From: Escherichia coli
GTDB taxonomy: Bacteria; Pseudomonadota; Gammaproteobacteria; Enterobacterales; Enterobacteriaceae
Direction: 5' to 3' (one strand)
Assembly (NCBI RefSeq): GCF_003790525.1
Contig: NZ_CP033635.1
Length of the DNA: 64,000 nt
The notes beneath the pieces were generated by a model, which saw only the letters and a list, made by a program, of their open reading frames with translations, had not been told where the DNA came from and did no database searches. Both the position numbers and the translations under genes were made by a program. Below, in pieces: positions 18,537 to 19,741 of the stretch. Positions within the stretch are counted from its first letter, which is position 1. The number at the start of each line of letters is the position of its first letter.

Positions 18537-19619
18537 GTGAAACCAGTAACGCTATACGATGTCGCAGAGTATGCCGGTGTCTCTTATCAGACCGTTTCCC
18601 GCGTGGTGAACCAGGCCAGCCACGTTTCTGCGAAAACGCGGGAAAAAGTGGAAGCGGCGATGGCGGAGCTGAATTACATTCCCAACCGCGTGGCACAACA
18701 ACTGGCAGGCAAACAGTCGTTGCTGATTGGCGTTGCCACCTCCAGTCTGGCCCTGCACGCGCCGTCGCAAATTGTCGCCGCGATTAAATCTCGCGCCGAT
18801 CAACTGGGTGCCAGCGTGGTGGTGTCGATGGTAGAACGAAGCGGCGTCGAAGCCTGTAAAGCGGCGGTACACAATCTCCTCGCGCAACGCGTCAGTGGGC
18901 TGATCATTAACTATCCGCTGGATGACCAGGATGCCATTGCTGTGGAAGCTGCCTGCGCTAATGTTCCGGCTTTATTTCTTGATGTCTCTGACCAGACACC
19001 CATCAACAGTATTATTTTCTCCCATGAAGACGGTACGCGACTGGGCGTGGAGCATCTGGTCGCATTGGGTCACCAGCAAATCGCGCTGTTAGCGGGTCCA
19101 TTAAGTTCTGTCTCGGCACGTCTGCGTCTGGCGGGCTGGCATAAATATCTCACTCGCAATCAAATTCAGCCGATAGCGGAACGGGAAGGCGACTGGAGTG
19201 CCATGTCCGGTTTTCAACAAACCATGCAAATGCTGAATGAGGACATCGTTCCTACTGCGATGCTGGTTGCCAACGATCAGATGGCGCTGGGCGCAATGCG
19301 CGCCATTACCGAGTCCGGGCTGCGCGTTGGTGCGGATGTCTCGGTAGTGGGATACGACGATACCGAAGACAGCTCGTGTTATATCCCGCCGTTAACCACC
19401 ATCAAACAGGATTTTCGCCTGCTGGGGCAAACCAGCGTGGACCGCTTGCTGCAACTCTCTCAGGGCCAGGCGGTGAAGGGCAATCAGCTGTTGCCCGTCT
19501 CACTGGTGAAAAGAAAAACCACCCTTCCGCCCAATACGCAAACCGCCTCTCCCCGCGCGTTGGCAGATTCTTTAATGCAGCTGGCACGACAAGTTTCCCG
19601 ACTGGAAAGCGGGCAGTGA
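18537..19619 (+). CDS. lacI: lactose operon repressor
   Basis: GTG start giving VKPVTLYDVAEYAGVSYQTVSRVVNQ...LESGQ, 360 aa; classic lacI promoter sequence upstream. Confidence 0.95.
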   Translation: MKPVTLYDVAEYAGVSYQTVSRVVNQASHVSAKTREKVEAAMAELNYIPNRVAQQLAGKQSLLIGVATSSLALHAPSQIVAAIKSRADQLGASVVVSMVERSGVEACKAAVHNLLAQRVSGLIINYPLDDQDAIAVEAACANVPALFLDVSDQTPINSIIFSHEDGTRLGVEHLVALGHQQIALLAGPLSSVSARLRLAGWHKYLTRNQIQPIAEREGDWSAMSGFQQTMQMLNEDIVPTAMLVANDQMALGAMRAITESGLRVGADVSVVGYDDTEDSSCYIPPLTTIKQDFRLLGQTSVDRLLQLSQGQAVKGNQLLPVSLVKRKTTLPPNTQTASPRALADSLMQLARQVSRLESGQ

Positions 19620-19632
19620 GCGCAACGCAATT
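19612..19632 (+). promoter_or_regulatory. lac auxiliary operator O3
   Basis: ggcagtgagcgcaacgcaatt at 3' end of lacI. Confidence 0.8.
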
Positions 19633-19634
19633 AA

Positions 19635-19650
19635 TGTGAGTCAGCTCACT
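19635..19650 (+). promoter_or_regulatory. CRP (CAP) binding site of lac promoter, variant half-site
   Basis: tgtgagtcagctcact (the K-12 form I recall has tgtgagttagctcact). Confidence 0.8.
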
Positions 19651-19667
19651 CATTAGGCACCCCAGGC

Positions 19668-19697
19668 TTTACACTCTATGCGTCCGGCTCGTATGTT
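19668..19697 (+). promoter_or_regulatory. lacZYA promoter -35 (TTTACA) and -10 (TATGTT), 18-bp spacer
   Basis: tttacactctatgcgtccggctcgtatgtt. Confidence 0.85.
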
Positions 19698-19703
19698 GTG
19701 TGA

Positions 19704-19724
19704 AATTGTGAGCGGATAACAATT
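19704..19724 (+). promoter_or_regulatory. lac operator O1
   Basis: aattgtgagcggataacaatt. Confidence 0.9.
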
Positions 19725-19741
19725 TCACACAGGATACAGCT

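Follow-up and report, generated by a model that had tools for sequence, protein, structure and literature searches.

The lac locus described here raises the question of whether a control region that departs from that of Escherichia coli K-12 at a few bases has acquired a different regulation, or is an ordinary natural haplotype of a conserved region. The locus lies within a 64,000-nt stretch of E. coli contig NZ_CP033635.1 (the window), of which positions 19560-19800 were aligned to the lac region of the K-12 reference MG1655 (NC_000913.3). Numbering is relative to +1 at 19704, the first A of O1, which places the lacZ ATG at +39 (19742), as in K-12. The lacI-lacZ intergenic region comprises 122 bp (19620-19741), the same length as in K-12, and the features of the region are as follows.

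18537-19619, plus strand: lacI coding sequence, 360 aa with a GTG start, an intact ORF (SMS-3-5 annotation mapped to the window)
19612-19741, plus strand: lac control region, from the first base of O3 (in the last lacI codons) up to the last base ahead of the lacZ ATG
19612-19632, plus strand: auxiliary operator O3, GGCAGTGAGCGCAACGCAATT, 0 mismatches against K-12, centre 92 bp upstream of the O1 centre
19632-19653, plus strand: 22-bp CRP site, TAATGTGAGTCAGCTCACTCAT, centred at -61.5, with intact pentamers TGTGA (19635-19639) and TCACT (19646-19650)
19668-19697, plus strand: sigma-70 promoter lac P1, with -35 TTTACA (19668-19673), an 18-bp spacer and -10 TATGTT (19692-19697)
19704-19724 (+1 to +21), plus strand: primary operator O1, AATTGTGAGCGGATAACAATT, 0 mismatches against K-12
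19731-19735, plus strand: Shine-Dalgarno AGGA (+28 to +31) followed by the +32 SNP at 19735, with the spacing to the ATG as in K-12
19742-22816, plus strand: lacZ coding sequence, 1024 aa, the full 3075 nt as an intact ORF
20105-20125, minus strand: auxiliary operator O2 within lacZ, AAATGTGAGCGAGTAACAACC as read on the minus strand, 0 mismatches against K-12, centre 401 bp downstream of the O1 centre

Positions 1-40000 of the window match the E. coli SMS-3-5 chromosome throughout (NC_010498.1; 100.000% identity, 0 mismatches, 0 gaps), and the gene order tauABCD ... mhp ... mhpR-lacI-lacZYA-cynXST-cynR-codAB-prp is that of K-12, with lacI, lacZ, lacY and lacA all present as full-length ORFs. 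As this identity and the native synteny extend over 40 kb, the locus is native and chromosomal, in agreement with the preliminary description, which had set a native locus against a cloning-vector fragment. By every sequence criterion tested, namely the mhpR-lacI-lacZYA-cynX context, O1, the O3 and O2 distances, the class I CRP site TGTGA-N6-TCACT and P1, it is a native chromosomal E. coli control region. Elsewhere in the window a complete IS1 of 768 bp (42718-43485) is located between yahJ and yahK, flanked by an 8-bp direct repeat, CACAACGT, and containing two reading frames.

43154-43429, minus strand: InsA of IS1
42732-43235, minus strand: InsB of IS1

The SMS-3-5 RefSeq record has no IS1 at yahJ/yahK and is otherwise identical, with one mismatch in 43485-64000; owing to the extra IS1, the window is SMS-3-5-like but is not that RefSeq record. 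When sought as a single piece, the yahJ/yahK IS1 junction was present in 0 of the complete E. coli genomes in our collection.

The alignment with MG1655 reveals exactly five differences within 19620-19741, each a single base.

19642 (-62): K-12 T, window C; position 11 of the CRP site, innermost in the N6 spacer
19676 (-28): K-12 T, window C; P1 spacer
19682 (-22): K-12 T, window G; P1 spacer
19703 (-1): K-12 G, window A; base directly 5' of the transcription start and O1
19735 (+32): K-12 A, window T; just 3' of AGGA

The K-12 sequence assumed in the preliminary description proves to be accurate, as none of these sites is identical to K-12. Its two spacer changes correspond to -28 and -22, its change just upstream of O1 to -1 G>A, and its change in the Shine-Dalgarno region to +32 A>T, with AGGA itself retained; its reading of the -35, -10 and O1/O2/O3 elements as intact is likewise borne out. 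The substitution that it placed in the left CRP half-site is a real change (-62), but lies outside the recognised pentamer and in the N6 spacer, for which conservation among CRP sites is very weak, if any (PMC2504297). None of the five SNPs falls within the 60 contact positions formed by O3, the CRP pentamers, -35, -10, O1 and the Shine-Dalgarno element (0/5; hypergeometric P = 0.031), and as all five are located outside the contacts, their distribution bears the signature of purifying selection on the contacts and drift elsewhere. At 5/122 (4.1%), the divergence of the control region from MG1655 is not significantly different from the pooled synonymous divergence of 7.2% (pS: lacI 0.055, lacZ 0.079, pooled 0.072) or from the regional average of 2.5% over 17 kb. 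A reading in which the control region is excessively divergent was dropped on the grounds that 4.1% is lower than the synonymous 7.2%.

Several differences from K-12 surround the control region. Further synonymous changes are found in lacZ codons 2 (19747) and 11 (19774) and at the end of lacI, whereas amino-acid differences number 4 in LacI, 28 in LacZ, 0 in LacY and 8 in LacA, the last comprising a start-codon change and seven replacements. The lacA start (24187) is ATG in the window, as against the weak TTG of K-12. In the mhpR-lacI intergenic region a single C>T at 18488 falls in the lacI promoter spacer, at what we take not to be the lacIq position. A promoter-like TTCACA-17-TATGAT (10/12 matches) at 19724-19752 overlaps O1 at its end and lacZ at its start, and through the synonymous +44 C>T (19747) its -10-like hexamer becomes TATGAT, an improvement on the CATGAT of K-12; since its start would fall downstream of the ATG, the motif is probably meaningless.

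To place the five alleles within the species, we used a collection of 5,426 complete E. coli genomes, of which ~5,339 carry the lac control region. The short queries were built so that every 28-mer seed spans the variant base, and a match therefore indicates that the genome carries the allele. The counts below are lower bounds from a clinically biased collection, with percentages of the ~5,339.

-62C: at least 2548 genomes (48%)
-28C: at least 352 + 1046 = 1398 genomes (26%)
-22G: at least 352 + 1046 + 1025 = 2423 genomes (45%)
-1A: at least 4457 genomes (83%), the majority allele
-1G, the K-12 state: at least 858 genomes (16%)
+32T: at least 2219 genomes (42%)

The sums for the spacer positions reflect three haplotypes, C-28/G-22 (at least 352 genomes, mostly O157:H7), the B2-type C-28/T-23/G-22 (at least 1046) and T-28/G-22 (at least 1025). 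A single 33-nt query for -28C had returned only 63 genomes, an artefact of the method that arises because adjoining SNPs in O157:H7 (-39) and in B2 (-38, -23) destroy the 28-mer seed, and it was replaced by the haplotype-specific queries. Many of the 858 genomes with -1G are laboratory K-12 derivatives. Alignment of 15 sampled genomes gives all five window alleles in the O157:H7 and B2 strains and T at -62, -28 and -22 in the phylogroup A and B1 strains, with G at -1 in K-12 only. Each allele thus occurs at 26-83% in E. coli, and the word 'variant', as applied to this region in the preliminary description, is reference-centric. The exact SMS-3-5 haplotype is rare, its 48-nt spacer segment being matched exactly in 43 genomes and a 701-nt segment at 99% identity or more in 32 records, yet it is composed of common alleles.

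To address the polarity of the five sites, species-representative genomes were scanned for a pattern that singles out the native O1-lacZ junction. Four loci emerged, one each from the E. coli representative, from Escherichia whittamii, from Escherichia sp. E1V33 and from a contaminant. The E. whittamii locus (93% identity in 591 nt) reads C/C/G/A/T at the five sites, the same as the window, and in Escherichia sp. E1V33 four of the five sites have the window state. The divergent lac operon of plasmid pG5 (95.8% identical) has all five. Because both E. whittamii and the divergent plasmid operon carry every window state, the K-12 alleles are most likely derived. The window states would then most likely be the ancestral Escherichia states, a call that rests on three outgroup-like sequences, and the derived bases are most likely those held by K-12 and the sampled phylogroup A and B1 strains. 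At these five sites K-12 is accordingly no 'wild type', as -1G is a minority allele at 16% and its other four states are apparently derived; it follows that a base at which another strain departs from K-12 ought not to be taken for a mutation in that strain.

Two of the other lac copies encountered deserve description. The copy on the E. coli G5 plasmid (NZ_CP060066.1, 1889-6032; L016) is a lacI-lacZ segment near an IS5075 transposase, 95.8% identical to the window, with a variant O1 that starts AAATGTGAGC; the -28C query gave 13 plasmid matches in E. coli genomes, and L016 is the one that was inspected. The lac region of E. coli SCPM-O-B-8794 (NZ_JAATUR010000022.1), the GTDB representative of E. 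coli, is unusually divergent (91.3% over 404 nt against the window) and shows further SNPs in its promoter, at -48, -45, -29, -26 and -20.

We favour, with a probability of roughly 0.87, a control region that is intact and would retain textbook lac regulation, its five differences being near-neutral standing polymorphisms. LacI would repress through O1, with looping to O2 and O3, cAMP-CRP bound at -61.5 would provide class I activation, transcription would begin at the sigma-70 promoter P1, and lacZ would be translated from the AGGA Shine-Dalgarno element; the five differences would occupy positions that are read specifically by no protein or rRNA. It is from the observed architecture, allele frequencies and outgroup states that we infer near-neutrality and unchanged regulation. 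A point against near-neutrality is that modest shifts in expression can come from the spacer sequence, from the base at -1 and from the Shine-Dalgarno-AUG spacer. Natural variation of the lac promoter has already been surveyed, and the present sequence is itself already public as the SMS-3-5 genome. Razo-Mejia et al. (2014; bioRxiv 10.1101/003772) compared the lac promoters of 91 strains, 69 sequenced genomes among them, and place natural SNPs at low-impact bases, with effects at the CRP and RNAP sites predicted to be below 1 kBT. By Phillips et al. (2019; PMC6851279), the diversity of lac regulation among isolates is reported to depend on the wider genetic background. SMS-3-5 is named nowhere in the text of either paper (0 occurrences).

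The preliminary description had suggested that the changes may tune CRP dependence and translation initiation. Extended to all five sites, such adaptive tuning would have -62 alter CRP affinity or bending, -28 and -22 the strength of P1 or P2, -1 the start site and +32 translation initiation, to yield a different lac input function; we regard it as unlikely. The spacer changes offer it some support, as we take -22 and -28 to lie within or to adjoin the overlapping P2 RNAP site, with -22 at the P2 start. The predicted cost of opening the ribosome-binding site is also 1.2 kcal/mol higher for the window leader (7.8 vs 6.6 kcal/mol for K-12, whole leader), but this modelled difference is small and originates mostly from synonymous lacZ changes, +32 alone shifting the cost by 0.06 kcal/mol. 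The base of the 16S 3' end opposite +32 is C, which pairs with neither A nor U, and complementarity to the anti-Shine-Dalgarno is unchanged by +32 A>T. Also against tuning, the alleles are old, common, found across phylogroups and shared with an outgroup species, the SNPs avoid the contact bases (0/5), and the divergence is below the synonymous rate; for natural SNPs, moreover, binding-energy effects of less than 1 kBT are predicted (10.1101/003772). As for regulation among isolates, Phillips et al. (PMC6851279) report natural differences in lac regulation and a phylogenetic signal in the parameter for how cAMP-CRP influences RNAP binding, both of which favour tuning, but also a limited association with lacI-ZYA polymorphisms, the significant ones being clustered at the lacZ and lacA ends. 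Because the reporter described there had one common lac promoter in all strains, that variation is trans-acting. Overall, the sequence analysis provides no evidence for tuned CRP dependence or translation. It is quite unlikely that lac expression differs measurably between the ancestral-type haplotype (C-62/C-28/G-22/A-1/T+32) and the derived one found in K-12 and the sampled A/B1 strains; possible routes to such a difference are competition between P1 and P2, the choice of start site between -1 and +1, and a leader helix involving +32 and +71. If the haplotypes did differ, the control region that textbooks describe for K-12 would be a regulatory variant that is derived, possibly selected and unrepresentative of the species.

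In that helix, +32 and +71 would be compensatory changes (A32-U71 in K-12, U32-A71 in the window) that maintain an mRNA structure sequestering the region just 3' of the Shine-Dalgarno element, the change at +71 being the synonymous T>A at 19774; +32 would then be subject to structural constraint and not neutral. Folds of 75 nt do pair GAUAC (+30 to +34) with GUAUU (+69 to +73), the SNPs exchanging A-U for U-A, and the two positions co-vary in 15 of the 16 first-sampled sequences and in 10 of 11 distinct haplotypes. The helix is nevertheless gone in folds of 100-120 nt, with a pair probability of at most 0.06 in most haplotypes; the A/A intermediate occurs naturally (strain 08-00022), +71A is present in ~330 more genomes than +32T, and the neighbouring pair is broken in E. 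whittamii. As +44 co-varies equally well, the co-variation of +32 with +71 points to simple linkage. We thus consider the compensatory helix very unlikely, and it was dropped as probable linkage, given that it appears in 75-nt folds only and that intermediates exist. A practically negligible probability attaches to the remaining alternative, that the lac DNA is a fragment of a cloning vector or laboratory construct, or contamination of the assembly. Among vector contaminants the lac promoter/operator is the most frequent, and a K-12-type contaminant of this kind was indeed found in a Pelagibacter assembly: the 1056-bp scaffold ATTF01000058.1 of Candidatus Pelagibacter ubique HIMB058 (L020) bears a K-12-type lac control region with a native lacZ junction and G>A at -66, where we place the classical L8 mutation of the CRP site, and is almost certainly laboratory E. 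coli DNA. L020 has the K-12 allele at 5/5 SNP sites, whereas the window has the non-K-12 allele at 5/5. At the window lac locus we found no polylinker after lacZ codon 5, no truncation of lacZ, no K-12 alleles at these sites and no backbone flanks; codons 5-7 are the native ACG GAT TCA, and the ATGATTACGGATTC junction is native. The contaminant reading is refuted by the chromosomal flanks, the 40 kb of perfect synteny with SMS-3-5 and the full-length lacI, lacZ, lacY and lacA.

The reading of an intact control region with near-neutral polymorphisms makes the finding a real one of small biological weight, an ordinary natural haplotype, and its relation to known systems may be summarized accordingly. 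Relative to K-12, the control region has the same placement between lacI and lacZ, length, O1/O2/O3, CRP pentamers, P1 hexamers and spacer length, and Shine-Dalgarno spacing, and differs by five single bases (-62, -28, -22, -1 and +32), all outside contact positions. The frequent CRP-site SNP of Razo-Mejia et al. (10.1101/003772) is the same kind of variation and may correspond to -62. All five window alleles recur in B2 strains such as UPEC 536, which differ at -77, -38, -23 and +59. The control region of O157:H7 (phylogroup E) likewise has all five alleles in common with the window, and although a typical O157:H7 strain differs at -39 and +53, one record under the O157:H7 label (TR01) matches the window at all of 149 nt.
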